Positions 1,641 through 26,316 of a stretch of 49,689 nucleotides of DNA are shown in pieces. This DNA is from Polyangia bacterium. GTDB taxonomy: Bacteria > Myxococcota_A > Polyangia > Haliangiales > JADYYK01. Where the stretch lies: assembly GCA_044229835.1 (NCBI GenBank), contig JBGASF010000046.1, positions 1 through 49,689 of the forward strand, in the 5' to 3' direction. Position 1 is the first letter of the stretch. Each line of letters begins with the position of its first letter. The notes under the pieces were generated by a model, which searched no databases, was not told the DNA's origin, and saw only the letters and a program-made list of their open reading frames with translations. A program made the translations under genes and the position numbers.

Positions 1641-1658
1641 AGAACAGATGACGGAGGG

Positions 1659-2900: not shown

Positions 2901-2948
2901 TCCAGGCTCCTTCTCAGTGCGCAGCAATATACCTGAACAACCTTCAAT

Positions 2949-3866
2949 CTAGATGCAGGCGCGATCACGGCCGGCGGCCTTGGCCCGGTACAGCGCCTGG
3001 TCGGCCTTCTCGAACAGGAGGTCGCCGCTGTCGCCGTCGTCGGGGCACACCGCGACCCCGATCGAGATGGTCGGCTGGATGATGACGCCGTCCTTCTCGA
3101 AGTGGTGCGTGCGCACGCGATCGACGATGGCCTCGGCGACCTTCAGCCCGGCGTCGCGGGTGTGGCGCTTCAAGTAGCACATGAACTCGTCGCCGCCGAA
3201 GCGGCAGGCCTCGCCGCGCGCGCCGACCACGTCGCGCAGGATGGCGCCGACCTCGGCGATGGCGTAGCCGCCGTAGGGATGGCCGTGGGTGTCGTTGATC
3301 TGCTTGAGGCCGTCCATGTCCATCACCAGCACCGCGATGGGCTCACCGGCGGCCAGCGCGCGCGCCAGCGCCAGCTCCAGCTCGGCGTCGAACTTGCGCT
3401 TGAGCAGGAGGCCGGTCAGCGCGTCGGTGCCGACCAGCTCCTCCAGCTTGTTGTGGAAGTCCATGTCGAGGCCGTCGGCGTAGCCGAACTTCACCACGCT
3501 GGCGCCGAGGAAGATCTTGTCGCCCTCGCTGAGGATGTGCGCGGTGACGCGCTCGCCGTTGACCAGGGTGCCGTTGGTCGAGCCGAGATCGCTGAGCAGG
3601 TAGCGCCCGTCGGGCGCGCGATCGATGCGGATGTGCTCGCGCGAGATCGACCCGTCGGCCAGCGGCAGCTCGACGTCGGGGTCGCGCCCGATGGTGACCG
3701 GGCGATCGAGCATGACGTGGGTGCCGAGGTCGCTCTCGGCGCCCTGGATGACCAGCAGCGAGGCCGCGCGGAGATCCTGAGCCCGGGCCGGCGCTTCGCC
3801 GTGCGCGAACTTGATGGTCTCTGCGCCCCGTCGATCCCTGCGTTTGGCCATGGGCCCTTGCCTCAC
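2949..3866 (-). CDS. FHA-domain-containing diguanylate cyclase (FHA + GGDEF).
   Basis: N-terminal FHA signature (VTIGRDPDVELPL...ISREHIRI...STNGTLVNGERV). C-terminal GGDEF domain with intact RFGGDEF motif. Start either GTG at 3866 or ATG at 3851. Confidence 0.8.
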   Translation of the reverse strand: MRQGPMAKRRDRRGAETIKFAHGEAPARAQDLRAASLLVIQGAESDLGTHVMLDRPVTIGRDPDVELPLADGSISREHIRIDRAPDGRYLLSDLGSTNGTLVNGERVTAHILSEGDKIFLGASVVKFGYADGLDMDFHNKLEELVGTDALTGLLLKRKFDAELELALARALAAGEPIAVLVMDMDGLKQINDTHGHPYGGYAIAEVGAILRDVVGARGEACRFGGDEFMCYLKRHTRDAGLKVAEAIVDRVRTHHFEKDGVIIQPTISIGVAVCPDDGDSGDLLFEKADQALYRAKAAGRDRACI

Positions 3867-3885
3867 CGTACCACCGCGCGCCGGG

Positions 3886-5880
<1,995 letters not shown>

Positions 5881-5990
5881 GACGCCGCGGTGTTTACCAC
5901 ATCATCCAAGCCGGGTCGCGCGATTGACATTGTGCGTCAAACTTGCAAGTGTTCCGCGCTCGTTGTCGCCGCTCCTTTTGTGAGGTCCCC

Positions 5991-7181
5991 ATGTCGATGA
6001 AGCAGTATCTGCTCACTCCTGGTCCGACTCCGGTGCCCGACCGCGTGCTGCTTGCGATGGCGCAGCCGGTGCTGCACCACCGCATGCCCGCCTTCTCCAA
6101 GATCTTCACCGAGGCGGTCGACGGCCTGGCGTGGATCTACCAGACCGCCGGTCGGCCCATCATCCTGAACGGCTCGGGCACCGCCGCGATGGAGGCCGCC
6201 GTCGTCAACCTGATGTCGAAGGGCGACACCGCGCTGGTCGCGCACTCGGGCAAGTTCGGCGAGCGCTGGGTCGAGCTCTGCAAGGCGTATGGAATCGCCA
6301 CCGTCGAGGTCAAGGCGCCCTACGGCGACGCCGTTGACCCTGCGGCGGTCGACCGGGCTCTCACCGAGAACCCCGGCATCAAGGCCGTGTTCATGCAGGC
6401 CAACGAGTCGTCGACCGGCGTGCGCCAGCCCTACGAGGCGGTCGCCAAGCTGGTGCAGGCGCGCCAGGACGTGCTGCTGGTGGTCGACGCCGTCAGCGCG
6501 CTGGGCGCCTGGGACATCCCGATGGACACCCTGGGCATCGACGCCCTGGTGACCGGGTCGCAGAAGGCGCTGATGCTGCCGCCGGGGCTGGCCTTCATCG
6601 CGCTGTCGGAGCGCGCCTGGGCTCGCCAGGCCAAGAGCGATCTGCCCAAGTACTACCTGAACCTGGCCACCGAGCGGAAGGCGCAGCAGAACGGCGAGAC
6701 CGCGTGGACGCCGGGGGTGTCGCTGATCATCGGCCTGCGCGAGGCGCTGGCCATGCTCAAGGAGGAGGGGCTGCCGGCCATCTTCGCGCGCCACGACGCG
6801 CTGGCCCGCGCCACCCGCGCGGCCATGGCGGCGGCCGGGCTGGAGCCCTTCTCGCGCGCGCCGTCGCCCACGGTGACCGCGATCAAGGCGCCCAAGAAGG
6901 CGGACGGCACCGTGATCGACACCGACGCGCTGGTCAAGCACCTGCGCGGCACCTATGGCGTGTCGATCGTGGGCGGGCAGGGCTCGATGAAGGGCCAGGT
7001 CTTCCGCGTCGCGCACCTCGGCTACTACGGGCCGTTCGACATCCTGACCGTGTGCACCGCGCTGGAGATGTCGCTCAAGGACCTGGGCTGCAACGTCGAG
7101 CTCGGCAAGTCGACGGCGGCCGCCGAGGAGATCCTTTCGGCGTGGCGCAAGCAGGCCAAGGCGGAGGCTGCGAAGAAGTAG
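5991..7181 (+). CDS. Class V pyridoxal-phosphate aminotransferase (AGXT / serine-glyoxylate / alternative phosphoserine aminotransferase type).
   Basis: MSMKQYLLTPGPTPVPDRVL... N-terminus and SQKAL pyridoxal-lysine region typical of class V aminotransferases. Located upstream of serA. ATG at 5991 chosen over the track start at 5943. Confidence 0.8.
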   Translation: MSMKQYLLTPGPTPVPDRVLLAMAQPVLHHRMPAFSKIFTEAVDGLAWIYQTAGRPIILNGSGTAAMEAAVVNLMSKGDTALVAHSGKFGERWVELCKAYGIATVEVKAPYGDAVDPAAVDRALTENPGIKAVFMQANESSTGVRQPYEAVAKLVQARQDVLLVVDAVSALGAWDIPMDTLGIDALVTGSQKALMLPPGLAFIALSERAWARQAKSDLPKYYLNLATERKAQQNGETAWTPGVSLIIGLREALAMLKEEGLPAIFARHDALARATRAAMAAAGLEPFSRAPSPTVTAIKAPKKADGTVIDTDALVKHLRGTYGVSIVGGQGSMKGQVFRVAHLGYYGPFDILTVCTALEMSLKDLGCNVELGKSTAAAEEILSAWRKQAKAEAAKK

Positions 7182-7993
7182 TGCCCGAGGAACGTGAAGG
7201 CGAACGTGAAGGCGAACGCGCAGGCCTGGCGACGCTGGGGGACATCGCCGCGCACCTCGATCAAGTGCTCGAGGTGCGGGCGGTGCGCGACTACGGGCCC
7301 AACGGCCTGCAGGTCGAGGCCCGCGCGCTGGGCAGCGCGGTGACCCGCGTCGCCACCGCGGTGTCGGCCAACCTGGCCGCCATCGAGGCCGCGGTGGCCT
7401 TCGGCGCCGAGCTCCTGGTGGTGCACCACGGCCTGATCTGGGGCGGCGGGATCGAGCGCGTGACCGGGCCGACCGCGCGCCGGCTGGCCGCGCTGCTGGG
7501 CGGCGGGGTCTCGCTGCTGGCCTATCACCTGCCGCTGGATCGCCACCCCACGCTGGGCAACAACGCCGGCCTGTGTGACCTGCTGGGGCTGGGGGCGCGG
7601 GCGCCGTTCGGCGAGGTGCGCGGCGTCGCCATCGGCACCGTGGGCGAGCTGGCGGCGCCGCTGCCGGCGGCCGAGCTGCGCGCGCGGGTCGCCGCCGGGG
7701 TCGGCCACCCGACCTTCGCCTTCATGCACGGGCCGGCCGAGGTGCGTCGCGTCGCGGTGTGCTCGGGCGCGGCGGGCGACATGATCGAGGCGGCGCGCGC
7801 GGCCGGCGCCGACGCCTTCCTGACCGGCGAGCTGGCCGAGCGTGCCGGCGAGCTGGCGCGCGAGCTGGGGATCCACCTCCTGGCGGCCGGGCACTACGCC
7901 ACCGAGGTGTTCGGGCCGCAGCGCCTGGGCGCCGAGCTGGCGACGCGCTTCGGCGTCGCCACCACCTTCGTAGACGTCCCGTCTCCACTGTAG
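7181..7993 (+). CDS. Nif3-like dinuclear metal centre protein (YqfO/YbgI family).
   Basis: Real gene is the 3' part of track ORF 6704..7993. GTG at 7181 overlaps the upstream stop (taGTG). Conserved ...DYGPNGLQVE..., HHG, AGHYATE motifs. N-terminal (EREG)n from a 12-bp tandem repeat. Confidence 0.7.
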   Translation: MPEEREGEREGERAGLATLGDIAAHLDQVLEVRAVRDYGPNGLQVEARALGSAVTRVATAVSANLAAIEAAVAFGAELLVVHHGLIWGGGIERVTGPTARRLAALLGGGVSLLAYHLPLDRHPTLGNNAGLCDLLGLGARAPFGEVRGVAIGTVGELAAPLPAAELRARVAAGVGHPTFAFMHGPAEVRRVAVCSGAAGDMIEAARAAGADAFLTGELAERAGELARELGIHLLAAGHYATEVFGPQRLGAELATRFGVATTFVDVPSPL

Positions 7994-8018
7994 CCATGTC
8001 GAGAAAAGGAAGCTCCCG

Positions 8019-9628
8019 ATGACGACACCGCAGCCGTTCAAGGTCCTGGTCGCCGACGACATGTCGGATCGCGTCACCGCGCTGCTGCGCGAGACGCCGG
8101 GCATCGAGGTCACGGTCAAGACCGGCATGAAGCCGGCCGAGCTCTTGGCCTTCGTGGCGCCGTTCCACGCCATCCTGGTGCGCTCGTCGAGCAAGATCAC
8201 GCCCGAGGTCATCGACGCCGCGCCCGAGCTGCGCTTCCTGGGTCGCGCCGGCATCGGCATCGACAACATCGACGTCAAGGCGGCGTCGCGGCGGGGGATC
8301 GTGGTCGAGAACACGCCGTCGGGCAACGCGGTGACCACGGCGGAGCACGCCATCTGCCTGCTGTGCTCGCTGGTGCGCCACATCCCGCAGGCCACGGCGT
8401 CGATGCGCGCCGGCAAGTGGGACAAGAAGAAGTTCCAGGGCACCGAGCTGTTCGAGAAGACGCTGGGCGTGGTCGGCCTGGGCAACATCGGGCGCCTGGT
8501 CGCCGAGCGCGCCACCGGCCTCAAGATGAAGGTCATCGCCTTCGATCCCTTCCTGGGCGAGGAGGCCGCGCAGCGCGTCGGCGCCGAGCTGGTCACGCTG
8601 GATCAGCTGTTCACCCGCTCCGACTTCATCACCGTGCACACGCCGCTGACGGCGGAGACCAAGGGGCTCATCGGGGCGCAGTCGATCGCGCGCATGAAGA
8701 AGGGCGTCTTCATCGTCAACGCCGCGCGCGGCGGGATCGTGGACGAGGCCGCGCTGCTCGACGCGCTCAAGTCGGGCCACGTGGCCGGCGCCGCGCTCGA
8801 CGTCTTCGCCGCCGAGCCGCCCACCGGCAGCCCGCTGCTGGAGCAGGACAACGTGGTGCTGACGCCGCACCTCGGCGCGTCGACCGACGAGGCGCAGGAG
8901 AAGGTCGCGGTCGAGCTCGGCGAGCAGCTGGTCGCCTTCGTGACCCGCGGCGAGATCAAGAACGCGGTCAATGTGGCGCCGGTGTCGCGCGAGGTGCTGC
9001 CGCGCCTGCAGCCCTACCTGGAGCTGGCCGGCAAGCTGGGCAGCCTGGTCGGGCAGCTGACGCGTGGCATCAACGAGGTCGACGTGGTGCTGACCGGCGA
9101 GGTCGGTGACCTGGGCAGCAAGGCGGTCGCCATGGCCGCGCTGGCCGGCGTGCTGCGGCCGCACCTGGATCGCCACGTGGTCAACGAGGTCAACGCCGCC
9201 ATCGTGGCCGCCGAGCGCGGCATCAAGATGACGCAGACGCAGCGCCCCGCGGGGCGCGACTACACCAGCGCCATCACCGTCATCGCGCGCGATCGCGACG
9301 GCAAGCAGCACCTGGTGCGCGGCGCGGTGTTCCACGTCGGCGAGCGCACCGAGCCGCGCATCGTGCAGGTCGATCAGTACACCCTGGAGGCGGTGCCCGA
9401 GGGGCGCCTGGTCATCATGCGCAACCACGACCGGCCCGGCGTCATCGGCGCGGTCGGGACGCTGTTCGGGCAGCGCGGCATCAACGTCGCGCGCCTGCAC
9501 CTCGGCCTCGACAAGGCCAACGATCAGGCGCTGGCGCTGTGGAACGTGGACGGCGAGATCGAGGACGCCGTGCTCGACGAGCTGCGCAAGCTGCCCCACG
9601 TGGTCGAGGTCCTGCGCGTCAGTCTGTA

Positions 9629-9629
<1 letters not shown>
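8019..9629 (+). CDS. serA: D-3-phosphoglycerate dehydrogenase with C-terminal ACT domain.
   Basis: Full-length match in layout to SerA: NAD Rossmann motif GVVGLGNIGRLVA, catalytic region, C-terminal ACT. Good RBS. Confidence 0.9.
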
Positions 9630-12344
<2,715 letters not shown>

Positions 12345-12345
<1 letters not shown>

Positions 12346-12437
12346 TGTTCCGGCAGCCCATCCTGGTCACCGCCGCGATCATCGCCGCCGCCGCGCTGGG
12401 GATCCTCTTCCTGGTGCTGCGGGGTGGATGTTCGTGA
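12345..12437 (+). CDS. Possible small single-pass membrane protein (30 aa), translationally coupled to purA.
   Basis: TGATG overlap with the purA stop. Hydrophobic MFRQPILVTAAIIAAAALGILFLVLRGGCS, very high GC3. Below the ORF-track length cut-off. Speculative. Confidence 0.3.
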
Positions 12438-12654
12438 AGTGGGCCCCGGCGCCCGGACCCGGACTGGGGGCTGGCTTCCGGCTAGCTTACGGAAAAGCGC
12501 CTCGATGAAGCCAAAGCTGGCCCAGGGCTCCGGGTCTATGCCTTCGAGAACGGCGGGTTTTCCGGTCGGCCGGTCTCTGGTGGTGGGCGCCCGTCCCGGG
12601 CTCACCGGCCGTGGCGGTAGCCTGTCCGTGGTGCGGAGGAGCTTGGCCAGTTGT

Positions 12655-12683
12655 TTGCTAGAAACGGTGAAAAGTCATATGAT
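12655..12683 (+). promoter_or_regulatory. Sigma70-like promoter candidate: TTGCTA, 17-bp spacer, TATGAT. Sits upstream of the zinc-ribbon protein gene.
   Basis: 4/6 match to -35 and 5/6 to -10 with ideal spacing, in a locally AT-richer intergenic stretch about 55 nt before ATG 12738. Confidence 0.4.
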
Positions 12684-12737
12684 GTCGCGACTGAAAAGGT
12701 CCGGCGTCCCCCAGGTCCCACTCTTCGAGAGGCCTCG

Positions 12738-14669
<1,932 letters not shown>

Positions 14670-14740
14670 CGTAGCGGCGTCGGACGCCTGAAGCAGCAGG
14701 GCCCCGCGGGCGATTGACGCGGGGCTCTGGTGTTTTCGGG

Positions 14741-15719
14741 CTACAGGATACCGGCCAGCTTGTGCGCCTGCTTGACGGCGGTCTCGAGGTCGCCGCTGTA
14801 GTACCAGGGGTACCTGAAGGCGCCCCAGCCCATGTGGGTCAGCGGCACGCGCAGGCGCGCGGCGTCCTCGGCGACGAAGGCGGCATAGGCCAGCACGTTC
14901 CACGGCAAGGTGGCCCACGGGCCCATGGGCGCGGTCTGCTCCAGGGCGGCGATGGCGTGATCGAGCTCGGCCAGCACCGCGGGCTGCTTGAAGTACGCCC
15001 GGGCGGCGGCCTCGCCGACGTCCATCAGCTGGCTGTTCCAGACCTCGAGGTGCGCGGCGATGGGCAGCGCGGGCAGGCCGCTCAGGGTCTCGGCGCGGGC
15101 GGCGGCGGCGCGCGCGAAGTCGAGCACCGCCTCGCCGGGCAGGCCGCTCCACTTGGGCGCCATCGCGACCACCAGCTGCTGGTGCGCCAGCCAGTTGTCG
15201 GGCTGGCGCCGGCACGCCTCGGCGAGCAGCTGCCGGCCCACGTCGAGGTCGGCGTCCTGCCCGCGCGCGATCTTGATGGCGAAGGCGTACGGCGTCGGAT
15301 CGGTGGGATCCATCTGCATGACCTGCTCGAGATCCTGGCGGGCCAGCGTCAGGCGCTGCTGGAACAGGCTGGCCGCCCCGCTGCCGACGCTGGACCCGGC
15401 GCCGCTGCCGCGCGCCTGCCAGGCCCAGTCGATCCGGGTCACGCCGCGCACCAGGAAGGGGACGACCGAGTGCGGCTCGTTGCCACACCAGGCGTCGCAC
15501 AGCACGCCGAGGTGGGGCACCAGGTGAGGTGACACCAGGTCGAGGTAGAAGGCGCGGTCGTTCCACAGCATGTCGCGCGTGGTCAGCAGGACGGTGTTGG
15601 TCGAGCTGACGTCGTAGCGCTTGACGGCATCGACCAGCATTGCGCCGGTGGCGTCACCTGCGCCTGGGTGCAGCTTGCTGCCGGCGAACATGGATTTGAG
15701 GCTGTCGAACAGGCCCATG
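14741..15719 (-). CDS. Hypothetical cytoplasmic protein.
   Basis: Coherent composition from MGLFDSLKSMF... (cat at 15717-15719). The upstream part of track ORF 14741..16030 is Arg/Pro-rich junk. No domain recognised. Confidence 0.45.
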
Positions 15720-15736
15720 GGGGGACGGTAGCACTG

Positions 15737-15750
15737 TCGAGCACGAGCAC
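15737..15750. repeat. Short (CGAGCA)x2 microsatellite remnant adjoining the conserved repeated element.
   Basis: Direct reading. Confidence 0.7.
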
Positions 15751-15786
15751 GTGGCCTTGGGTGGCGGGCGGTGGTGGCGCGGGGGG

Positions 15787-15846
15787 ACTGCGGCCGACCT
15801 TGCGTGTGGCGTGGGGCTGGTGCTGGGTTCGGCGGCGGCAGCTTGT
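15787..15846. repeat. Copy A of a ~60-bp repeated noncoding element (CTGCGGCCGACCTTGCGTG..GGGGCTGGTGC.GGGTTCGGCGGCGGCAGCTTG). A small hairpin (CAGCTT/AAGCTG) overlaps its 3' end.
   Basis: About 90% identical by eye to 49585-49644. The two copies would be in different reading frames, so not coding. Confidence 0.7.
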
Positions 15847-16259
15847 GTGGCGAAGCTGATGCGCGTGTTCGACCGCTGCCGCACTCCGCGCGGCCATGCG
15901 CAAGACGCTCCGCCTCGCCGTGATCGACTGCGATCATGGACATCGTCGTGTCTGCACCACCACCACTGCCACGCAAGGCGCCCAGCAACACCCTGGCGGC
16001 GGCGGCCTGACAACTCGGACTCGTCTTCATCCACCCTGCCGTGCGGCGCCTGCTGCCCGGACCGGTGGAGCGCTGGCGAGCACCGCATTCACCCGCTCCG
16101 ATTCGCCTCGGGGTGGCAAACCTACGGGATCACGAGAGCCGATCGAAACAGTGCCGGCGAGAGAACCGCGCAACACCAGCACTCCCGAGGCGATGACATC
16201 ACCGGGAGGGAACTACGCGGGCCAACGGCGTTCCTCAGTCGGACAGAAACCCTCGCTCT

Positions 16260-17651
16260 ATGTGCGTCCTCATCATCGGCTCAGAGTCCTATCGCTTGTC
16301 GCTCACGATGGCGTGCAAGCAAGCGGGATGGGAGGTGTCCGCCGAGCCCGGACGGGCAAACGCGATCCTTTTGGATCCAACGCTGGTTCGCTGGGCCAAC
16401 GAACCAGCAGAGCGAATCGTCGCGCTAGTGATCCGCGCAAGGCAGTTCGCCCAAGCCAACAGATTATCCCCTCGGCAGACCTGGCTGGTGGCGCTCCTGT
16501 CCCAGTGGGGACCCCCTTGCCCTGACGACCTTGCCGATCCTGTTCCGGTTGAGAACTCGATTCCGGTCGTCGCCACGGGCAACGGTGCGGCCAACTCATT
16601 CTTGCAGCCGCCATTCAACTACCCGGCGATACTGATCGTCTACAAGGAGTTGGCCTCCCCACAGAGATTGGTGTTTCAGCGCTGGGTGCAGGACGGGGGA
16701 GGCGCCAATGGATGGCGGACGCCACTCGAGGTTGATCCCTCCCTGCGTGGAGTGGCGGCAAACAATCGCTCGAACATCGTCGAGTTGAACGGCGAACTTT
16801 ATCTCTACGTTGTTCGCAATGACTCCACTGTGGCGGAGTATCTCTACGACCGAGCAAACTCGTCGTTTTCTCTGGTCGGGACCGTCCAGGTTGGCGGTGC
16901 GTCTGTCAGGGCGATCGAGGGTTTTGCTGTCACGGCTGGTTACGAGAAGGGATATGCTCGCAAGATCTACGCCGTCTATCGGCCGGCGGCCGGTGGGGCC
17001 GTCGAGTTTCTCCGTAGAGATGGGGCGAATGCATGGGCCGCGCTCACGAATACTGTGTGGTCGACCATGCCCAGGCTGAGTTCGACGTTCATGCCTGGCA
17101 TCACCTATGTGCCATTCGATGAGGCGGTGCCCTCTGAAGGTCGATTCTATGTCCACACAACAAACGCAGGCTGTGTCTTCGGGAACTGCATTAGCTCCAT
17201 ATTTACTGAGGGCAACGATCCCGCCTCGTCCACGACACGACGTCTGCGGTTTGTGACGAGTGGTCTGGGTTCCGAGGCCGTGTTTCAGTTCAGCCAGCTC
17301 AACGGGCAAGAGAGTCTCTTGGCGGTGCCGTACGCAGTGTCGGTGGGGACGAGGCACGTGGCTGTGGCAGGCTCCGTGACTGGGGTGGCTTTCTACCCAT
17401 TCTGGGATGGCATCTTCAACGCAGGTACGACCGATCACGATGATTTCGTCACAGTCGGCCGCAACACGGCATGTGGAATCAAGTGCATCCCACCAGCGCT
17501 GACACCGAACCCATCCGTTGCCGATGGATGCTGCCCGGGCGGTGCAACGGGACCTGGTTTTGACAAAGACTGCACTCAGAACTACCTGCGCGACGTTGCC
17601 TTCTCGGGGAGCGGAGACTGGAGCGCCACAGCCTCGTGTCGGGCGCTGTAG
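16260..17651 (+). CDS. Hypothetical protein inside a low-GC patch (~58-60% GC against ~71% for the window).
   Basis: Long ORF with atypical codon usage for this genome. No signal peptide or recognised domain. Start uncertain. Confidence 0.45.
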   Translation: MCVLIIGSESYRLSLTMACKQAGWEVSAEPGRANAILLDPTLVRWANEPAERIVALVIRARQFAQANRLSPRQTWLVALLSQWGPPCPDDLADPVPVENSIPVVATGNGAANSFLQPPFNYPAILIVYKELASPQRLVFQRWVQDGGGANGWRTPLEVDPSLRGVAANNRSNIVELNGELYLYVVRNDSTVAEYLYDRANSSFSLVGTVQVGGASVRAIEGFAVTAGYEKGYARKIYAVYRPAAGGAVEFLRRDGANAWAALTNTVWSTMPRLSSTFMPGITYVPFDEAVPSEGRFYVHTTNAGCVFGNCISSIFTEGNDPASSTTRRLRFVTSGLGSEAVFQFSQLNGQESLLAVPYAVSVGTRHVAVAGSVTGVAFYPFWDGIFNAGTTDHDDFVTVGRNTACGIKCIPPALTPNPSVADGCCPGGATGPGFDKDCTQNYLRDVAFSGSGDWSATASCRAL

Positions 17652-19036
17652 TGGGTTGGCTCGGTTGCATTGCGGCGCTGCTCGCGGGGTGCTTGGGTGC
17701 GCTTTCTGGCTGCGGCGGCAAGGGCCGCCCTGCCACTCAGGATGGAGCGCTGACGGATGCCGGGGCCAGCGTCGACTCCGCCCAGTGTCCCACCGCCGAT
17801 GCGGCCTCATGCGCTGGCGAGTGGCCGCCTCTGACTGCGCCCGCGGCGGCCAGCTTGCAGGTGCCTTTCGAGGTCAAGTGGGCCTATGTCGAACCGCAAG
17901 GGACGGGTCTGTTCAACGTGGTCGTCCTCCCATCTGCGCAGAAGGTGGTGTTTCGCCAGGGGACCTCAGTGATTGTGTTGATGGGCCTCGACGGTGGCAA
18001 CATCCGGCGGTTTGGGCCAGTTGCAGGGGCCGACCTTGGTCTCAACATCGCTGCTGACGCGCGCGATGACTTCTACGTGGCTGGTGAGCAACAAATCTAC
18101 TCGTACTCAGCGTCTGGAACACTGCGTTGGACGACCGACCTGCCGGGGCCCTTTCCGGCAGTGAGTGGCTCACCTGGCATGGCTGGCTTCGCGATTCGCG
18201 GCGGGACTCTCTACGCGGGGGCCACTGACCGGCGCCTCCACGCGATCGATACGACAGACGGGCGAGAAAGGTGGAGCATACCGCTCGCTATCGAAGCCTC
18301 GCTCACCCATCCCGTGGGCCGCGGCGATACTCTCTTCGTTCCAGTTCTGGGAGGCGGCCTGGTTGCCGTCGACGCGACTTCGGGTGCGGTGAGATGGCAG
18401 GCCCCGTGTCCGCATCTCATTGCCCCCAACATCCCCATGCCGACGCGAAGCATGGTGCTCGGTGGATCATACGATTTTGGTGGAGTGATCCCGAAGGAGG
18501 AGACTCGGGTTTTTGCGCTCGGGAAGTGCGACGAGCTCACCACGCCGGTATCACTGAGGGGAAACCCGGACTGGTCGCTGGAGACGCGGAGCGGGGCGGT
18601 TCTGGCCAGAGTCGAGCAGCGCAACCACGCCGTGGTGGATTTTGCCCTGATCGATCTCGCATCCAATCGTGAGCTCGCTCGCCGCACCATCGGCGTCGAC
18701 GACGGCGTCCAGCGCACGTTCGCTGCGTATGTCGTCGCGATTGGCGACGACGACGTTGCTTACATCGTCGAGACCTATGTGCCGATCGGAGCGCCAGGAG
18801 AAGCCTCACGGTTGCATCGTCTGTCGCTACCGAGCCTGGCGTCGGTCGGCCCCCCCCTTGAAATCGGGGAGGGCGCCACCATAGGCTATGCCTCGGCCAT
18901 GACCGATGAGGGGCTCCTCATCGTGCCACTGGCCCGGCGAGTGGTCGCGGTGCAGACCCCAAGCCCAGGGCCACTCAAGGGAGCATGGTCGTTGTCCCAC
19001 GGTGACGCGCGCGCCTCCAAGTGGCTCGAGCCGTAG
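17636..19036 (+). CDS. PQQ-repeat beta-propeller lipoprotein (BamB-like fold), in the low-GC patch.
   Basis: Lipobox LLAGCLGALSGC. PQQ-type repeats (GTLYAGATDRRLHAIDTTDGRERWSIPL, LVAVDATSGAVRWQAP). 16-nt overlap with the upstream gene. Confidence 0.6.
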   Translation: MSGAVVGWLGCIAALLAGCLGALSGCGGKGRPATQDGALTDAGASVDSAQCPTADAASCAGEWPPLTAPAAASLQVPFEVKWAYVEPQGTGLFNVVVLPSAQKVVFRQGTSVIVLMGLDGGNIRRFGPVAGADLGLNIAADARDDFYVAGEQQIYSYSASGTLRWTTDLPGPFPAVSGSPGMAGFAIRGGTLYAGATDRRLHAIDTTDGRERWSIPLAIEASLTHPVGRGDTLFVPVLGGGLVAVDATSGAVRWQAPCPHLIAPNIPMPTRSMVLGGSYDFGGVIPKEETRVFALGKCDELTTPVSLRGNPDWSLETRSGAVLARVEQRNHAVVDFALIDLASNRELARRTIGVDDGVQRTFAAYVVAIGDDDVAYIVETYVPIGAPGEASRLHRLSLPSLASVGPPLEIGEGATIGYASAMTDEGLLIVPLARRVVAVQTPSPGPLKGAWSLSHGDARASKWLEP

Positions 19037-19063
19037 GGAAGTCTGCATTCGCTCGCCCGGCGG

Positions 19064-20413
19064 TCAGCCCTGCAGCCGCGCCGCCAGCGCGAGCAGCCCC
19101 AGCCCGAACACCAGGATTGCCGCACCGCTGGCGACCACGGCTGCGCGCCGGGTGCGATCACCACCGTCACCGGTCAACCGGCTGCGCGACTCGGGCGTCG
19201 CCAGCAGCGCCGAGGCCAGCAGGTTGCCGCCGGCGAACAGGGCGCACAGCAGGATGGCCATCGGCGCGCGCGCCGCGAAGCCGGCCAGGGCCATGGCGCC
19301 CCACACCGCCGGCGAGCGCACCGCGGTCTTCAGCGCGTCGGCGCCCGCGGGCAGCGGCGCCGTCGCCGCGCGTCGCGCCAGCGCCAGGGTCACGATGCCG
19401 ATCGCCGCCATCACGCCCGCGGCCGCCAGCCCCAGCGCGCGCGGTGGCGACAGCTGCTCGAACAGGCGCGCCACCGGCAGCGCCGCGATCCCCACCACCA
19501 GGGTGCGCGCCAGGGCGTCCGCGATCGGGCTGACCTGCACCTTGTCACTGGTCAGCGCCGCCAGCCGTGCCGGCGCCACCGCGTCGAGCGCGCCGAGGAT
19601 CAGCGCGATCACCATCATCAGCAGCGCGCCCGCCGCGCCCAGGTCGGCGCGATGCGACAGCCCCAGCCACCACGGCACCGCGCCACCACCCGCACCACCC
19701 GCCCGCGTCGCGCCGCTGCCGGGTCGGCCCGCCGCCTGCTCGGGCGCGGCGTCGTCCAGCCAGGCCACCGTGACCGAGCGATCCTCGCCGCTCAGCTCGG
19801 CCGAGCCACGCCACAGGAACTGCGAGGTCACGCCCTGACCATGACGACCGATGTGCGAGGCCACCACGCGCAGCCCCGGCTCGGCCTGCACGAAGAGCTC
19901 GGTCTCGCCGGGCAGGTCGGGCTCGAAGGAGTGATCGACGTACAGCGAGTGGCTGCGCATGCGCCGGAGCGGCGCGCGCAGCACCAGGTCGACCGAGAAC
20001 GACCCCGCGCGCGTGACCGCCTGGCCCAGCCCCACCGAGGCCTCTGCCTTGTCGACCGGGACCACCACGCCGTCGATCTCGAGGCGCACCTTGGCCAGCA
20101 CCTCGGCCTGCGCGCGCCTGGCGAACGCGGTCTGCTCGGCGTCGTCGAGCACACCGTCGCGCGAGCTGTCCATCTGCGCGCGCGCCTCCAGCGCCGGGGC
20201 GTCCCCGAAGTACAGCGTGTACACGAAGCGCACGCTGTCCTGGCTGACGTCGAGCTTGAGGTAGCGGTTGTTCAAATTGGGATCGGGGCCGACATGCGCG
20301 GCCGCCGGCGTCGCCACCGCCAGCACGCCCAGCAGGACGACGACCCCGGCCACGGCCTGGCCCAGCGCCGCGGTGCTGCCCCTGCCTGGCCTCGAGCGCC
20401 CATGCGAGCCCAC
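19064..20413 (-). CDS. Membrane protein with signal peptide, periplasmic domain and a C-terminal multi-helix hydrophobic region.
   Basis: N-terminal signal AVAGVVVLLGVLAVATPAAAH, then a soluble domain, then several predicted TM helices. No confident family assignment. Confidence 0.5.
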   Translation of the reverse strand: MGSHGRSRPGRGSTAALGQAVAGVVVLLGVLAVATPAAAHVGPDPNLNNRYLKLDVSQDSVRFVYTLYFGDAPALEARAQMDSSRDGVLDDAEQTAFARRAQAEVLAKVRLEIDGVVVPVDKAEASVGLGQAVTRAGSFSVDLVLRAPLRRMRSHSLYVDHSFEPDLPGETELFVQAEPGLRVVASHIGRHGQGVTSQFLWRGSAELSGEDRSVTVAWLDDAAPEQAAGRPGSGATRAGGAGGGAVPWWLGLSHRADLGAAGALLMMVIALILGALDAVAPARLAALTSDKVQVSPIADALARTLVVGIAALPVARLFEQLSPPRALGLAAAGVMAAIGIVTLALARRAATAPLPAGADALKTAVRSPAVWGAMALAGFAARAPMAILLCALFAGGNLLASALLATPESRSRLTGDGGDRTRRAAVVASGAAILVFGLGLLALAARLQG

Positions 20414-20585
20414 GGGCCCCGTCTATCACCTTCACGGCCCGCGGGCAAAGGCCAAAGCCCCGAAACCACGTTCAAGCTGCCTGCCGCGCCAGTCAGGCTG
20501 CTCACGGTATTGACCGGAATCGTTGGCGCACCGTAGACTCCGCCTGCCCGGTCTTGCCGGGTGAACCCGCTTCGGAGGGTAGCTT

Positions 20586-21989
20586 ATGAGGAAGTCCCTG
20601 GCCTTTGCGCTGATCGGCTGCACGAGTCTGCTCGGTTGTGGCGGTGGTGATGGTGGTGGCCCCAACCCGGCGTTCGTCGACAAGCTGCCGTGCAGCGCCG
20701 CGACCAACGTCCCGCGCGCCGGCGACCACAAGCTGGTGCTGGCCAACCTCGAGATCGCGGACGTCACCGAGGGCTTCGACTTCAACGGCGACGGCCTCAT
20801 CGACAACGTGTTCGGCAACATCGGCCCGCTGGCCAACGGCTCGATCTCCGACTCGCTGGCCAAGGGCGAGCTGGTGGTCCCGATGGAGCTGTTCGACTTC
20901 CCGGCGGTCGCCGACGACACCTGCCTGAAGATGAACTTCTATCTCGGCAAGTACCGCTTCGACGACGACAACGACAGCAAGGTCACCACCGATACCAAGG
21001 GCAAGGGTGACTGCAACGATCACGAGATGACCATCCGCCCCGGCAACCCCGAGCTGGCCGACAACGGCGTCGATGACGACTGTGACGGCCTGGCCGACGA
21101 GACCCCGGGCGCCACCGGGCAGCCCGACGTGCCGTCGACCGCGACGCGTGACATGGACGGCGACGGTCAGACCGTGGCCGCCGGCGACTGCGACGATCGG
21201 CCCACCATGGGCACCATGTCGAAGAAGATGACCGGCGCCGAGGTCTGTGGCGACGGCTTCGACAATGACTGCTCGGGCGCCGCCGACGACGGCTGCACCT
21301 TCACCGATGGCAAGGGCGCCATCCGCCTCGATCCGCTGTCGTTCAACGCCGACCAGTCGGCCAAGATCAACTTCCAGAACGCCGCCGTGAAGGCGGGGCT
21401 GCTCGACGCCGGTCCGTCCAAGTTCGAGCTCTCGGTGCCGGCCATCAGCGACTTCGACCTCAACTTGAAGATCACCGGCACCCACGTGCAGGGCAAGGTC
21501 GCCGCCAGTGGCACCAGCGTCACCATCGGCACCATGACCGAGCTGGCCAAGCTGGGCGGCGTGCTGGATCTGCGCACGCTCGATCAGGTGCGCGGCATCG
21601 AGGTCAGCCAGATCAGCCTGCGCAAGGAGGACTCGCTGCTCGACGCCGTGTTCGCCGGCGGCGTCGTGGTCGCCTTCCTGCCGCTGCCCAAGAAGGAGGG
21701 CGGCAAGTACGACCAGCAGCCCACGCCCGACATCGACGTCGATGGCGACGGCCTCGAGATCGTGTGCCAGTCGGATCCGCCCGGCAGCACCAGCTGCGCC
21801 GCCAACCCCAAGGGCGACTTCCCGGTGGTCGACCTGTGCATCGACGGCGACGGCACCGCGGTGCGTGACGCCGACATGCCGACCGGCATGCAGTGCACCG
21901 ACGCCAAGAAGGGCGACAAGTACCGCTTCGTCGATGGCATCAGCGTGGCCTTGAATTTCCGCGCGGTTCCTGTGACCTTCGCTCCGTAA
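20586..21989 (+). CDS. Secreted lipoprotein with MopE-like putative metal-binding Cys/Asp repeats.
   Basis: Lipobox ALIGCTSLLGC. Repeats DNGVDDDCDGLADE and CGDGFDNDCSGAADDGC, typical of myxobacterial metal-binding-motif lipoproteins. Good GGAGGG RBS. Confidence 0.65.
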   Translation: MRKSLAFALIGCTSLLGCGGGDGGGPNPAFVDKLPCSAATNVPRAGDHKLVLANLEIADVTEGFDFNGDGLIDNVFGNIGPLANGSISDSLAKGELVVPMELFDFPAVADDTCLKMNFYLGKYRFDDDNDSKVTTDTKGKGDCNDHEMTIRPGNPELADNGVDDDCDGLADETPGATGQPDVPSTATRDMDGDGQTVAAGDCDDRPTMGTMSKKMTGAEVCGDGFDNDCSGAADDGCTFTDGKGAIRLDPLSFNADQSAKINFQNAAVKAGLLDAGPSKFELSVPAISDFDLNLKITGTHVQGKVAASGTSVTIGTMTELAKLGGVLDLRTLDQVRGIEVSQISLRKEDSLLDAVFAGGVVVAFLPLPKKEGGKYDQQPTPDIDVDGDGLEIVCQSDPPGSTSCAANPKGDFPVVDLCIDGDGTAVRDADMPTGMQCTDAKKGDKYRFVDGISVALNFRAVPVTFAP

Positions 21990-22028
21990 GGAACTTCCGT
22001 TCGACCCCGCCGCCTCCAGGAGCCGACC

Positions 22029-22244
22029 TTGCCCACCGACGTCGTCGCACACATCACCGGAACCGTCTGGAAGATCGAGAAGCAGATCGGCGACGACGTC
22101 GCCGAGGGCGACACCCTCATCATCCTGGAATCGATGAAGATGGAGATGCCCGTCGAGGCGCCGGCCTCTGGTAAGATCCAGGCCATCAAGATCAAGGAGG
22201 GCGATCCGGTCACCGAGGGCGCCGTCCTGATCATCCTGATCTAG
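22029..22244 (+). CDS. Stand-alone biotinyl-domain protein (BCCP-like, 71 aa).
   Basis: Biotin attachment motif E-S-M-K-M-E in a hammerhead-like context (GDTLIILESMKMEMPVEAP...G). TTG start with GGAG 8 nt upstream. Confidence 0.65.
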   Translation: MPTDVVAHITGTVWKIEKQIGDDVAEGDTLIILESMKMEMPVEAPASGKIQAIKIKEGDPVTEGAVLIILI

Positions 22245-22279
22245 ACCGCCTCTCACCATCCGGATCGGAGGACGCCGCC

Positions 22280-22552
22280 ATGAAGCTCGCCGCTGCCCTG
22301 TTGTTTGCGCTGGCCGTCGCGGGGTGCGGGGCGGTGGATGGCAAGGCGGTGGGCGCCAGCTGCCGGTCATCGAGCGAGTGCGCCGACGGCCTGGTGTGCG
22401 ACACCCTGACCGACAAGTGCGCCGAGAACATCACGCTGCGGCGTGACTCCGGCGTCATCGATGCCAACATGGTCGACGACGCCGAGGTCATGGATGTGCG
22501 CCCCATCGACGTGCGCATCATCGACGCGCCGTCGATCGACGCCCGCGACTGA
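22280..22552 (+). CDS. Small secreted lipoprotein (90 aa), Cys-rich.
   Basis: Lipobox LAVAGCG. GGAGGA RBS. Confidence 0.5.
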   Translation: MKLAAALLFALAVAGCGAVDGKAVGASCRSSSECADGLVCDTLTDKCAENITLRRDSGVIDANMVDDAEVMDVRPIDVRIIDAPSIDARD

Positions 22553-22575
22553 GCCGACCCCGACCCGCCTACGGC

Positions 22576-23691
22576 CTACGGCTCCTCGACGACCGCCGGC
22601 GGCACGCCCATGGTGTTGAACGGGCGCTCCTTGAGGATGCGGCTCATGGTCTTGAAGTCGTCGAACAGCTCGCGGTCGGCCAGCATGAGGCCGATGGTGC
22701 CCTCGGCGTCGGCGACGGCCTGGGTGATCTGAGCGGTCACCTTCATGATGCGGCGCGCCTCGTCGAGGGTGCCGCGCAGCGTGGCCAGGCCCGCCAGCAG
22801 CGCCTTGCGCTTGGCCGCCGGGAGCAGCCCGCCGAGGCGCGTGATGTTGGCCTGCAGCACCACGACCTTGCCGCGCATCTCGGTGATGTCGGCCTCGACC
22901 GCCTTCATGGCCTTCCTGAAGCGCGCCACCACCGCGCGCAGGCGGGGCAGCCGCTCGCCGGGCGCCAGCTCTTCCAGCAGCAGATCGCCCTCGTGCATGG
23001 CCTCGCGCACGTGGGCCACGATGCGGCTGACCTGGCCGCGCTCGGTGGGCAGCGACTGCAGGGTGTCCCACAGCGCCCACGCCGCGACCGCGAACTCGGC
23101 GAACGCCGGGCGCTGCTGCTCCACCGCGGCGCGCAGGATCTTCATGTTCTCCAGCGAGCGCGTCAGCAGCCGGTCGGTCGGCGCCGGGGTGACGCCGCAC
23201 ACCACGTCACCATCCTTCAGGAGTGGTCCCGGCTCGACCTCACGCGGCGGCGGCAGCACCTCGATGTACTGCGGCGCCAGGATCGAGCCCTGGTTGACGA
23301 AGAACTCGGCGTTCGTGCGCAGGTTGTCGCGCTCGCTCTGCTTGATCCACAGCGTCAGCAAGATCCGCGGCGCGCTGCTCTCGTGGCCGGCCTCGGCGGC
23401 GTCGCCGAACGCGGGCGGCTCGACCGGGCACACCCGGCGGTCGCGGCTGGCGAAGGCGACGCGCTCGACCTGGCCGATCTTCTTGCCCGAGACCCGCACC
23501 GCGGTGCCCACGCCCAGCTTGCCGATGCGCCCGAGCTCCATGGTGACCTGGACGCCGGGCCCGAAGTGCCGGCCCTCGATCAGCACGGTGGTGGCCATGA
23601 AGGCCGCCACCAGGCCGATGGCGACGGCGCCGACCACGAGGCGCAGGCTGTCCTCGTTGCGGCGCTTCTTCTTTTTCGGCGGCGTGGCCAT
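22576..23691 (-). CDS. MCE/MlaD-family protein (second paralogue, with long C-terminal helical region).
   Basis: N-terminal TM helix plus MCE domain (...VRVSGKKIGQVERV...). Confidence 0.7.
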   Translation of the reverse strand: MATPPKKKKRRNEDSLRLVVGAVAIGLVAAFMATTVLIEGRHFGPGVQVTMELGRIGKLGVGTAVRVSGKKIGQVERVAFASRDRRVCPVEPPAFGDAAEAGHESSAPRILLTLWIKQSERDNLRTNAEFFVNQGSILAPQYIEVLPPPREVEPGPLLKDGDVVCGVTPAPTDRLLTRSLENMKILRAAVEQQRPAFAEFAVAAWALWDTLQSLPTERGQVSRIVAHVREAMHEGDLLLEELAPGERLPRLRAVVARFRKAMKAVEADITEMRGKVVVLQANITRLGGLLPAAKRKALLAGLATLRGTLDEARRIMKVTAQITQAVADAEGTIGLMLADRELFDDFKTMSRILKERPFNTMGVPPAVVEEP

Positions 23692-23716
23692 GGCCCGGTT
23701 CAGCGGCGCTCGCTGC

Positions 23717-24733
23717 CTATTCCTTCCACAGGAACTTCCAGGGATTGCGCTTGAGGTCGCGCACCATCTCCTTGAGGTCGAGGTAGATGGCGTCGTCCCA
23801 CACGAAGGCGCCCGCGGTGCCCTTGCCGGCGCGGATGTGGTCGACCACGCTGCCGACCTTCTTGGTGATGCCGTTGACGTTCTTGGTGAGATCCGTGACC
23901 TGATCCAGCGAGGCCAGGATCTTGTCGCGATCCTCGGGTCGGATGATGCCGGTGGCGCGGATGACGCCGTCCATCGTCTTGTTGGCCTTGTTCATCACGC
24001 CGGGCAGCTCGCGGCTGGCGGTGGCGCTGATCGACTCCACGTTGGCGATGGTCCGTGACAGCCGCGCCGGGTTGGCGATCCCCTTGCGCAGGTCGCCAAT
24101 CAGCCCCGCACCCTGCTCGGTCAGCCCCTCGGCCTTCTGCAAGAGGCCCGAGATCTGCGCCTTGTTCTCGGTCAGCAGCGCGTTGACCGTGTTCACCGTG
24201 CTGGTCGAGTCCTCGATCAGCATGGTGATCTTCTCCTTGTTCTTCTTGAGCACCCACGACACGCCGTCGAGCACGTCGAACAGGCGCGCCACGATGAGAT
24301 CGGTGCGCGGCGGATCCTCGCCGTCGGCCTCGAACCCCGGCGGCATCGCCGGCTGATCGAAGGTCCCCGGGTTGATCTCGAGGTACTGCTCGCCCAGCAC
24401 GCCGGCGGTGTTGACGTAGAACTCGGCGTTCTGGCGCACGGTGTCCTTGACCCGATCCTCCAGCCACACCACCAGGCGGACATACTCGCGCTTGCCGGTC
24501 TTGGCCGAGACCTTGCCGCCGCGGAACTGCACGCTCTTGACCTTGCCGACCTTGATGCCCGAGACCTTGACCGGCGCGCCGGGGTGGATGTTGCCCGAGT
24601 AGCGGAACGACGCGTACACGGTGTAGCCATCCGACAGCGAGAAGTTGCCGAGGATGAAGATGAAGCCGCCGAGCAGGACCAGCGCGATCAGGATCATCGC
24701 GCCCACCTTGATCTCGAGCCCTCGTTCACGCAT
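23717..24733 (-). CDS. mlaD: MCE/MlaD-family substrate-binding protein.
   Basis: TM helix GAMILIALVLLGGFIFILG. MCE domain (VKVSGIKVGKVKSV...). Confidence 0.75.
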   Translation of the reverse strand: MRERGLEIKVGAMILIALVLLGGFIFILGNFSLSDGYTVYASFRYSGNIHPGAPVKVSGIKVGKVKSVQFRGGKVSAKTGKREYVRLVVWLEDRVKDTVRQNAEFYVNTAGVLGEQYLEINPGTFDQPAMPPGFEADGEDPPRTDLIVARLFDVLDGVSWVLKKNKEKITMLIEDSTSTVNTVNALLTENKAQISGLLQKAEGLTEQGAGLIGDLRKGIANPARLSRTIANVESISATASRELPGVMNKANKTMDGVIRATGIIRPEDRDKILASLDQVTDLTKNVNGITKKVGSVVDHIRAGKGTAGAFVWDDAIYLDLKEMVRDLKRNPWKFLWKE

Positions 24734-24742
24734 GCGTGCCTC

Positions 24743-25522
24743 TCAGAATCCCGGGGTTTCCATCGGGCCGTGCGACTGCCCGGTGATGAACTGCTGCACC
24801 ACCGGATCGGTGGAGGCGCGCAGCTCGGCCGGCGTGGCACAGACGTGCACCACGCCGCGATACAGGAAGGCGACCCGATCCGCGATCGAGAAGATCGAGG
24901 TCAGATCGTGCGACACCACGATGGACGTCACGCCCAGGGTGTCGGTCAGCTCGCGGATCAGCTTGTCGATGCGCCGCGCGCTGACCGGGTCGAGGCCGGT
25001 GGTCGGCTCGTCGAACAGGACGACCTCGGGGTCCAGCGTCAGGGTCCGCGCGATGGCGGCGCGCTTGCGCATGCCGTCGCCGAGGTCGGACGGCAGGCGA
25101 TCGGCGAACTCGCCCATGTGGACCTGCTCGAGGCGGCGCATGGCCTCGGTCAGGGCGCGCGCGCCGCGCAGCCCCTTGTGCTTGCGCAGCGGCAGCGCGA
25201 CGTTGTCGAGCAGCGTCATGGAGTCGAACAGCGTCGAGTTCTGGAACACCATGCCGCACTTCTTGCGCAGCGGGTACAGCGCGGCCTCCTCGAGATCCTG
25301 CACCGGCTGGCCGTCATAGAGGATCTCGCCGGCGTCGGCCTCGATGAGGCCGATGAGGTGCTTGATGGTGACCGACTTGCCGACGCCCGAGGTGCCGATG
25401 ATGAACATGACCTCGCCGCGCCCGATCTCGAGATCGATCCCGGTCAGCACGGCCTTGCCGCCGAACGCCTTCTCGACGCCGCGGAACACGATCTTGGGGC
25501 CGCTGTTGGAGGGCTCAGCCAT
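24743..25522 (-). CDS. mlaF: Mla-type ABC ATPase, subunit 2. Consensus Walker A/B and H-loop; deviant signature motif LGDGM.
   Basis: Real gene starts at [13 protein letters not shown] (ATGA overlap with mlaE); the upstream part of track ORF 24743..26398 is junk. Walker A GTSGVGKS, Walker B VVLFDEP, H-loop VVSHD, signature region [11 protein letters not shown]. Confidence 0.8.
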
Positions 25523-26316
25523 CAGCGCATCAGGTAGGTCATGAAGAAGTTGAGCAGCATGATCGAGATGGCCGCGGCGACGACGGCGTTGTTGACCGCG
25601 CGCCCGACGCCGATGGCGCCGCCCTTGACCGAGGTGCCGAAGTGGCAGCTGGTCAGCGCGATGGCCAGGCCGAACACGACCGCCTTGATGAGGCCGTGGG
25701 TGAAGTCCTCCAGGTGCAGCTGATCCTTCATGCCGTAGAACACGGTGGCGTACTCGACGTCGAGCAGGAGGTGCGAGAACAGGCCAGCGCCCAGCAGCGC
25801 GACCAGGTCGCCCATGATGACCAGGCAGACGATCGAGATCACCATCGCGACCACGCGCGGGACCACCAGGTAGCGCACCGGATCGATGGCCAGCGCGCGC
25901 AGGGCGTCGAGCTGCTCGGTGACCACCATGGTGCCGAGCTCGGCGGTGTTGTTGGCGCCGACGCGGCCGTTGAACATCAGGCCGATCAGCAGCGGCGCGA
26001 CCTCGCGCAGGGTGGCGTAGCCGGCGGCCCAGCCGATGATGCCGCGGGCGTTGAAGCGCTCCACGAAGATCCCGGCCTGGATGACCATGATGCCGCCGGT
26101 GAAGAAGGCGGTCAGCACCACGATGGGCACCGACTCGACGCCCATCTTGTAGAGGTTGCGCATGAGCTCGCGGGCGTCGAAGCGCGGCGGGATCAGCGCG
26201 CGCAGCACGCGCAGCAGGACCAGGGTGATGCCGCCGGCCTCGCGCGCGACCCCGAGGGCGCCGGCGCCGACCGCGGCCGACAGGTTGACGCTGGCGCGGC
26301 CGACGCGGCGGATCAC
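25522..26316 (-). CDS. mlaE: Mla-type ABC permease.
   Basis: MlaE/YrbE-like multi-TM protein. Couples by 4-nt overlaps to both flanking ATPase genes. Confidence 0.8.

Follow-up and report, generated by a model that had tools for sequence, protein, structure and literature searches.

The stretch of DNA analysed here, a 49,689-nt window of ~71% G+C from a metagenomic organism (contig JBGASF010000046.1), carries two copies of a noncoding element of about 60 nt, each lying directly 3' of an array of the hexanucleotide GAGCAC. Copy 1 (15787–15846, + strand) is located beside a gene encoding a 325-aa protein, next to a patch of low G+C content (0.62–0.64 at 16–19 kb vs ~0.71 elsewhere) that contains genes for PQQ_2-like proteins of 463 and 466 aa. 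Copy 2 (49587–49645, + strand) is located close to the end of the window, after the major vault protein (MVP) operon. We are highly confident that the element corresponds to the left arm of a larger gene cassette, represented in the window by one intact copy (copy 2) and one relic (copy 1).

An earlier note on this sequence had described two ~60-bp copies, ~90% identical, with no common reading frame, each beside a (GAGCAC)n array and each followed by an inverted repeat. The positions and the identity were confirmed: the 60-nt cores are ~90% identical with small indels, and alignment extended the homology leftward to ~90 nt (15757–15846 vs 49556–49645; ~82% identity over 94 nt), the extension being a GGTGG-rich tract. 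This tract occupies 15753–15786 (+) in copy 1, where it can be aligned with the corresponding tract of every intact left arm, and 49556–49586 (+) in copy 2, as defined by the alignments. Two blocks are exactly common to both copies: CTGCGGCCGACCTTGCGTG, of 19 nt (15788–15806 and 49587–49605), and GGGCTGGTGCYGGGTTCGGCGGCGGCAGCTTG, of 32 nt (15814–15845 and 49614–49645). Even with up to three mismatches allowed, their matches in the window were confined to the two copies, the shuffle expectation per window being 0.07 for CTGCGGCCGACCTTGCGTG and 0.00 for GGGCTGGTGCYGGGTTCGGCGGCGGCAGCTTG. The arrays were likewise found where expected, at 15738–15751 for copy 1 (a remnant of ~2.5 units, + strand) and at 49449–49555 for copy 2 ((GAGCAC/GAGGAC/GAGTTC)n, + strand, starting 1 nt after the TAG of a gene encoding a 189-aa protein). 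That no frame is shared also proved right: indels separate the two copies, and indels of 1–2 nt occur in two further copies described below (loci L022 and L026). A coding element was rejected on these grounds; in addition, an open reading frame (ORF) that runs through the region in locus L020 ends before the ATG.

The inverted repeats that follow the two copies are not equivalent. As defined by alignment and by a conservation profile of 14 copies, the segment 49587–49637 (+) of copy 2 is composed of the semi-conserved CTGCGGCCGACCTTGCGTGGCG, a variable block of ~15 nt and the invariant GGTTCGGCGGCG. It is followed at 49638–49678 (+) by the hairpin GCAGCTTGCGCGCCAGC / GCTGGCACGCAAGCTGC, whose 17-bp stem (49638–49654 / 49662–49678, with one C.A mismatch) is kept in all intact copies and whose 3' arm bears a sigma-54-type motif, TGGCACGCAAGCTGC (49664–49678). 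The window ends within the start of another invariant block, CGCGGGCCGCCTCT (49679–49689, +). After copy 1 there is just a 6-bp pair, CAGCTT/AAGCTG (15839–15844 / 15853–15858), and only the first 8 nt of the true 5' arm are shared. Beyond 15846, local alignment of this copy to the cassette was no better than that of shuffles, and blastn of the full cassette against the region covered 15760–15845 only. Copy 1 is 79–83% identical to the intact copies, which are 88–99% identical among themselves. The shared 19- and 32-nt blocks and the point where homology ends mark it as a left-arm relic, truncated within the 5' arm of the hairpin.

A two-gene PF05635 cassette

Full units were found in the long-read assembly GCA_963853155.1 (loci L021, L022 and L026) and on many short contigs, and complete cassettes bearing both arrays in L021, L022, L026, L071, L072 and L082. 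The cassette spans ~1.15 kb and carries gene A (109 aa) and gene B (107 aa), which converge. It reads, in order, a left (GAGCAC/GAGGAC)n array, the GGTGG-rich tract, CTGCGGCCGACCTTGCGTGGCG, ~15 variable nt, GGTTCGGCGGCG and the hairpin GCAGCTTGCGCGCCAGC / GCTGGCACGCAAGCTGC; then come ~45 variable nt, a 28-bp palindrome, a Shine-Dalgarno (SD) sequence with its ATG, and gene A. A G+C-rich hairpin lies between the two genes. Gene B, on the opposite strand, has its own palindrome and hairpin, followed by CGACTTGAATCGGGCGCACATCCGAAAC and by a right array, (GAGCAC/GAGACC/GACCAC)n, in direct orientation relative to the left one.

The product of gene A matched PF05635 (1.9e-15, 57.4 bits; cut-off 33.8) and TIGR02436 (1e-16, 61.2 bits; cut-off 24), and the product of gene B belongs to the same family (41.7 and 41.1 bits, respectively). 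The two proteins are paralogous, with 43% identity, and are members of the four-helix-bundle (4HB) '23S rRNA intervening sequence protein' family; by sequence, the nearest solved structure is 2GSC. Proteins of PF05635/TIGR02436 occur very widely and often in several copies, and we know of no stand-alone function or mode of spread for them. Because the cassette aligns with its own reverse complement at 65% identity over ~1,080 nt, it is an old imperfect inverted duplication, in which the duplicated module is the hairpin, the palindrome of the 5' untranslated region (5' UTR) and the PF05635/TIGR02436 gene. The gene-B arm has no counterpart to the 5' two-thirds of the element and carries CGACTTGAATCGGGCGCACATCCGAAAC at that place. 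The 28-bp palindrome, which is near-perfect, immediately precedes the SD of each 4HB gene (L021, 3925–3991 and 4706–4765; L001, 13441–13497). The A and B palindromes differ in sequence with pairing kept: one compensatory pair is clear, and the outer arms are wholly different. It may act as an operator, possibly one bound by the 4HB proteins, or as a structure in the 5' UTR.

The earlier note had expected further genomic copies, and more than 20 loci were recovered, in at least seven contexts. A 19-mer scan of species-representative genomes returned 12 scattered singletons, consistent with chance, and three matches in a single metagenome-assembled genome (MAG), 'Deltaproteobacteria bacterium SJ525', all three of which showed the order array, G-rich tract, element, hairpin, palindrome, 4HB gene. 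A metagenome scan with GGTTCGGCGGCGGCAGCTTG yielded 31 chance loci and one true cassette, and the close homologues of the 4HB protein formed a 34-member cluster at ≥90% identity. The intact copies come from three related assemblies and many metagenome contigs; they represent seven distinct left-flank contexts, plus one beside a UvrD gene, and lie between protein-coding genes in all of them. Every recovered copy except 15787–15846 is joined to the hairpin, the palindrome and gene A at a fixed distance. The cassette occurs in a genus-level clade of uncultured Myxococcota.

With regard to copy 2, contigs carrying the MVP gene all break within or just after the array. The cassette could be followed in two loci: L001, a locus of the same lineage, continues for 170 nt beyond the window through the palindrome, the SD and an ATG opening MAFKVLEMAIALAGQLRGPLEA, and L082, which is 97% identical over window 49012–49689, contains the whole cassette with its right array. 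These alignments indicate that copy 2 is, in all likelihood, the left arm of a cassette that is intact and lies downstream of the MVP operon. In the same neighbourhood, a gene for a 793-aa eCIS_core-domain protein (39446–41878, − strand) lies ~5 kb upstream of the bacterial MVP gene (Vault_3 / MVP_shoulder; region 46293–49447, + strand), and the 189-aa gene that follows the MVP gene had no family match.

Over 14 unique copies, the most conserved noncoding blocks were GGTTCGGCGGCG with the hairpin, CGCGGGCCGCCTCT and the palindrome, all of which are invariant. The 5' block of the element is semi-conserved, and its ~15-nt centre varies in both sequence and length. The conserved blocks of the element are TGCGGCCGACCTTGCG and GGTTCGGCGGCG, and those that are near or fully invariant in the 14 copies read TGC.GCCGACCTTGCG.GG and GGTTCGGCGGCG. 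Copies within a genome are 93–97% identical, vs 88–93% between genomes; for instance, L069 is 95–96% identical to the paralogues of its own lineage and 92% identical to its orthologue L021. Horizontal transfer of cassettes between distant hosts was suspected, as no purA from GCA_963853155.1 was among the top matches, and was dropped because L069 and L021 have orthologous flanks (89.6% identical) and cassettes that are 88.2% identical. Comparison of L022 (3620–3650) with L026 (3620–3860), both from GCA_963853155.1, revealed that one cassette has lost an internal segment comprising the 5' end of gene B along with the palindrome and hairpin of that gene; decay of cassettes in place is therefore also seen in other genomes.

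The copy 1 site and the hexanucleotide arrays

The site of copy 1 was compared between three lineages. The SJ525 locus (L068) is syntenic with the window on both sides at ~94% identity, L068 1–14641 corresponding to window 1087–15736 and 14758–21299 to window 19061–25610. Between the 325-aa gene and the next gene, where the window has 15737–19060, SJ525 has only a solitary array of ~9 units. In L036 (a JGI contig), 93.8% synteny with window 4186–15736 is followed by an array of ~108 nt, the cassette left arm and gene A. In the window, the 2.5-unit array stub precedes a left arm of ~110 nt that breaks off in the hairpin's 5' arm, and then 3.2 kb of unrelated DNA; this segment (15847–19060), delimited by the SJ525 comparison and by its G+C content, takes the place of the rest of the cassette and of the right array, which is not present at this site. 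These data show that an array site can be empty, occupied or degraded.

As the low-GC patch is absent from the syntenic SJ525, it is best viewed as a lineage-specific replacement of cassette and array, and as a relative carries the cassette at the same site, the stand-alone copy 1 is explained as a truncation. Copy 1 is thus, in all likelihood, a dead relic of a cassette that once occupied the array beside the 325-aa gene and whose remainder, from mid-hairpin to the right array inclusive, was later replaced by the 3.2 kb of low-GC DNA. No strain polymorphism was seen at copy 1, the nine contigs from other samples being identical, and a search for orthologues of the 325-aa neighbour retrieved only the identical protein. 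A gene difference among strains within the low-GC patch proved to be merely a difference in gene calling.

(GAGCAC)n arrays occur about once per 10 kb of window, all in + orientation, and a single array of this type was found in 303 kb of control loci. Apart from those adjoining the two copies, solitary arrays are present at the very start of the window (1–74, +, in the same orientation as the others), at 10653–10734 (+, detected with TRF) and at 43670–43716 (+), in the intergenic region between a DJ-1/PfpI gene and a convergent guanylate-cyclase gene. The array at 10653–10734 is in frame inside a gene, (AGC ACG)n encoding (Ser-Thr)n, and this gene (ORF 9539–11050) is a real one, the phase of third-codon-position GC being continuous across the array. 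The same site, upstream of purA, bears a solitary array of different length in SJ525 and L036 (78, 60 and 48 nt in the three lineages). At orthologous sites, array lengths were scored as differing by multiples of 6 (VWA site, 66/78/229 nt; MVP site, 84/90/102 nt). With a period of 6, 95–100% matches and a copy number that varies between strains, the arrays are microsatellites. The window begins inside an array and ends within the cassette, and other contigs break at the same places, which suggests that these repeats fragment short-read assemblies. Neither GAGCAC arrays of myxobacteria nor PF05635 cassettes standing alone were found described in the searchable literature. The window also has an intergenic block of other repeats at 34758–34991, made of (CACGGT)3, (CACGGAC)3, a (CCGCCCG)n array of ~100 nt and then (GTGACC)3, inverted relative to the first; it lies ~1.1 kb from a tRNA-Cys gene (36073–36146, − strand).

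Two distant PF05635 genes (47–49% identity) of other lineages were examined, at least one of them presumably from a Myxococcota MAG. Both adjoin long period-6 arrays; in 303 kb of unrelated control loci, one period-6 array of at least 8 units was found. In L091 (GCA_048500355.1, 1080–3586), the PF05635 gene is carried by a 906-nt element with 54-nt terminal inverted repeats (TIRs), embedded in a (GGCTCG/GGTTCG/GACTCG)n array, whose two flanking stretches measure ~890 and ~650 nt and which also holds two TIR-like mini-insertions of ~57 nt (1313–1375 and 1385–1440). In L093 (JGI Ga0373634_0000006), the PF05635 gene (1986–2341) precedes a (GAAGGC/GAAGAG/GAAGAC)n array of ~440 nt (2899–3337), an array with a period of 15 nt lies on the other side, and two sister contigs end in the hexamer array. 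These observations suggest that the link between PF05635 genes and hexamer arrays reaches beyond the clade, two cases being too few for a general claim.

Cassettes may be gained and lost by homologous recombination, gene conversion or break repair, with the flanking arrays as the homology, and solitary arrays would then be empty sites. Recombination of this kind would account for the fact that the arrays are in direct orientation and variable in length, and for the empty site with its solitary array. We put forward array-mediated gain and loss as a tentative proposal, with the odds slightly against it. A broader version, in which hexanucleotide arrays act as dispersed landing pads for small selfish elements that have Avd-like PF05635 genes as their sole cargo, spread and disappear by array-to-array recombination or break repair without encoding a recombinase, and leave behind solo relics of their ends (15787–15846 being one), appears doubtful.

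A promoter-like hairpin and the possible role of the element

The 3' arm of the hairpin reads CTGGCACGCAAGCTGCG and contains the motif TGGCACG-N4-CTGC. The sigma-54 consensus is TGGCACG-4N-TTGC(T/A) (PMC7910581); the motif shows a single departure from it (CTGC for TTGC) and keeps the conserved GG and GC correctly spaced, so that by sequence it qualifies as a sigma-54-type site. In the window, the pattern TGGCACGNNNNYTGC has a single match, located at the hairpin. In L021, TGGCACGNNNNYTGC (TGGCACG-N4-YTGC) occurs twice, for 0.04 expected, with one occurrence per arm, each facing its gene; both arms of L026 also have the motif facing their genes, and among 68 loci it is confined to cassettes. 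When the A and B arms are compared, the -24 and -12 blocks are identical and the spacer has changed, and two stem pairs have changed on both sides with pairing kept. The motif is absent upstream of the two distant PF05635 homologues and is therefore specific to the cassette of this clade.

The motif is located ~115 nt upstream of the ATG, which would give a long 5' UTR, and the element falls at about -25 to -125, a region in which sigma-54 promoters normally have their enhancer-binding-protein sites. The 3' arm of the hairpin may thus be a sigma-54-type -24/-12 promoter for gene A, and the element may be, or contain, upstream regulatory DNA of this promoter; its invariant 3' third (GGTTCGGCGGCG and GCAGCTTG) is part of the conserved promoter-hairpin block. 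A regulatory role for the element is possible, but we would not wager on it.

Taken as a whole, the explanation that the element is the array-proximal left segment of a multi-copy cassette, with the function and the spread proposed above, has in our estimate a probability of about 0.8. Several points weigh against it. Many of the contexts are short-read contigs, possibly mis-joined across arrays. The sigma-54 promoter and the enhancer role are read from the DNA sequence only. The gene-B arm has the same hairpin and motif without the 5' two-thirds of the element, so that either the element is unneeded for such a promoter or regulation differs between genes A and B. The central ~15 nt of the element are variable in sequence and length, and the remainder may be conserved simply through recent common ancestry and homogenisation. 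Array-mediated movement is deduced from the architecture and a single site with three states, neither junctions nor circular intermediates were observed, and gain and loss at the copy 1 site cannot be polarised because the three lineages are roughly equidistant.

The alternative that survives best, though we consider it unlikely, is that the element is a functionless spacer carried with the cassette, its similarity between copies resulting from recent duplication and gene conversion and not from selection. In agreement with a spacer, paired columns never covary, the central block is free in sequence and length, and a homologous segment is absent from the gene-B arm, which functions, or is at any rate retained, all the same. 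Copies within a genome are also more alike than orthologues across genomes, as noted for L069 (95–96% vs 92%), and the values for L069 and L021 (89.6% for the flanks vs 88.2% for the cassettes) mean that the cassette is not unusually conserved. However, the variation is clustered, with two blocks near or fully invariant in 14 copies, and the relic, which lies outside a cassette, has diverged faster than the intact copies.

Less probable is that the element acts in cis as the end site of a mobile cassette, which a recombinase or transposase encoded elsewhere would recognise, the arrays being the targets. The element is indeed placed exactly at the array/cassette junction and is specific to the left end, the cassette is present or absent at the array in one orthologous site, and the distant PF05635 gene of L091, in its 906-nt element with 54-nt TIRs, sits inside a hexamer array with small TIR-like solo insertions nearby. 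However, according to the neighbour gene tables, none of the cassettes contains or adjoins a gene for a recombinase, a transposase or a reverse transcriptase. The left ~70 nt and the right ~50 nt of the cassette have no similarity to each other, direct or inverted, and no target-site duplication (TSD) was found other than the arrays themselves. Direct arrays of 50–230 nt on both sides would moreover suffice for RecA-type recombination.

A small structured RNA, either a small RNA (sRNA) or a cis-regulatory one and possibly encoded on the minus strand, is very improbable. The minus strand does form an uninterrupted 18-bp stem, including a G.U pair (z = -5.0), and the arms GCGGCCGACC / GGTTCGGCGGC could close a variable loop. 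However, the strong structure is the promoter hairpin, which lies mostly outside the reported element, and it is lacking in the relic copy. The element itself folds unremarkably on the + strand (z = 0.0 and -1.1). Over 8 copies, RNAalifold on both strands gave predicted pairs inside the element that are invariant, with 0–1 compensatory changes; as all these pairs are invariant, covariation is uninformative either way. No Rfam family matched at the gathering threshold, and a search at an E-value threshold likewise gave no element-specific match. No sigma-70-type promoter or intrinsic terminator was detected, on either strand, around either copy or across the full cassette. The small RNA gene family suggested by the earlier note thus finds no support in these analyses. 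The note would have given up its proposals if just two copies existed and these showed no structural covariation: many more copies exist, and the pairs within the element do not covary.

The two remaining proposals of the note, a small repetitive extragenic element and a remnant of a miniature inverted-repeat transposable element (MITE), amount to an autonomous repeat adjoining 4HB genes by chance and are contradicted by the data: one stand-alone, noncoding, hairpin-associated copy exists (15787–15846), but it is a truncation, every intact copy forms the left end of a two-gene cassette, joined at more than 20 other loci in at least seven contexts to the hairpin, the palindrome and gene A, and the unit has neither TIR nor TSD, carries two genes and is flanked by arrays of variable length. 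What the note had recognised, a noncoding, repeated and hairpin-associated sequence tied to (GAGCAC)n arrays, is nonetheless genuine.

Explained as part of a larger gene unit, with one copy being debris, the 60-bp repeat is a weaker candidate for a new RNA or a MITE, and taken by itself the element is ordinary. Among small selfish gene elements, the array-bracketed cassette represents an unusual variant. The clade offers several handles (a two-gene cassette, a recognisable promoter type, conserved hairpins, flanking microsatellites and a three-state allele series) that make the regulation and the mobility of PF05635 genes testable, and the cassette and array repeats explain why short-read assemblies break at these places.

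Comparison with known systems

PF05635 is the ORF found in Coxiella's 23S rRNA intervening sequence (IVS) (PMC4990558). Like the 23S rRNA IVSs with S23p/PF05635 of Coxiella and Leptospira, the cassette is a small (<1.5 kb) repeated or selfish DNA with a PF05635 ORF as its sole cargo and an inverted-repeat architecture. Unlike them, it lies outside rRNA, none of which is present in the window or the loci, and is dispersed at many chromosomal sites; it also has two convergent paralogues, each with its own sigma-54-like hairpin and 5'-UTR palindrome, and direct hexanucleotide arrays. With no rRNA in the window, the cassette is not a 23S rRNA IVS.

PF05635 also resembles Avd, the accessory protein of diversity-generating retroelements (DGRs) (PMC10053308). 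The cassette proteins share with Avd a related fold and family, 2GSC being the closest solved structure. In contrast to a DGR, the cassette has no template/variable repeat, the only repeats being the arrays and its own arms, and no reverse transcriptase domain was found among the called neighbours within 2.5–10 kb of any locus; it is thus not a DGR. PADLOC returned no defence-system match.

Compared with repetitive extragenic palindromic (REP) sequences, bacterial interspersed mosaic elements (BIMEs) and MITEs, the element is likewise multi-copy, noncoding, hairpin-containing and mostly intergenic. It differs from them in that it does not stand alone and has no TIR or TSD, but belongs to a gene-bearing unit, the single solo copy being a deletion product; it cannot be assigned to these classes.

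The candidate promoter agrees with the sigma-54 promoters of Myxococcus xanthus in motif, spacing, distance to the ATG and the presence of conserved DNA upstream. It differs in being placed in the 3' arm of a perfect hairpin/palindrome.

Finally, the cassettes can be compared with the minimal mobile elements of Neisseria and with integron cassettes. No integrase or phage-integrase domain was found among the neighbours, and the cassettes are single and dispersed, so that they do not belong to an integron. Unlike both systems, they are flanked by a dispersed hexanucleotide microsatellite and not by conserved genes or attC; like both, they are small gene units, present or absent at a fixed site, delimited by repeats and without a mobility gene of their own.

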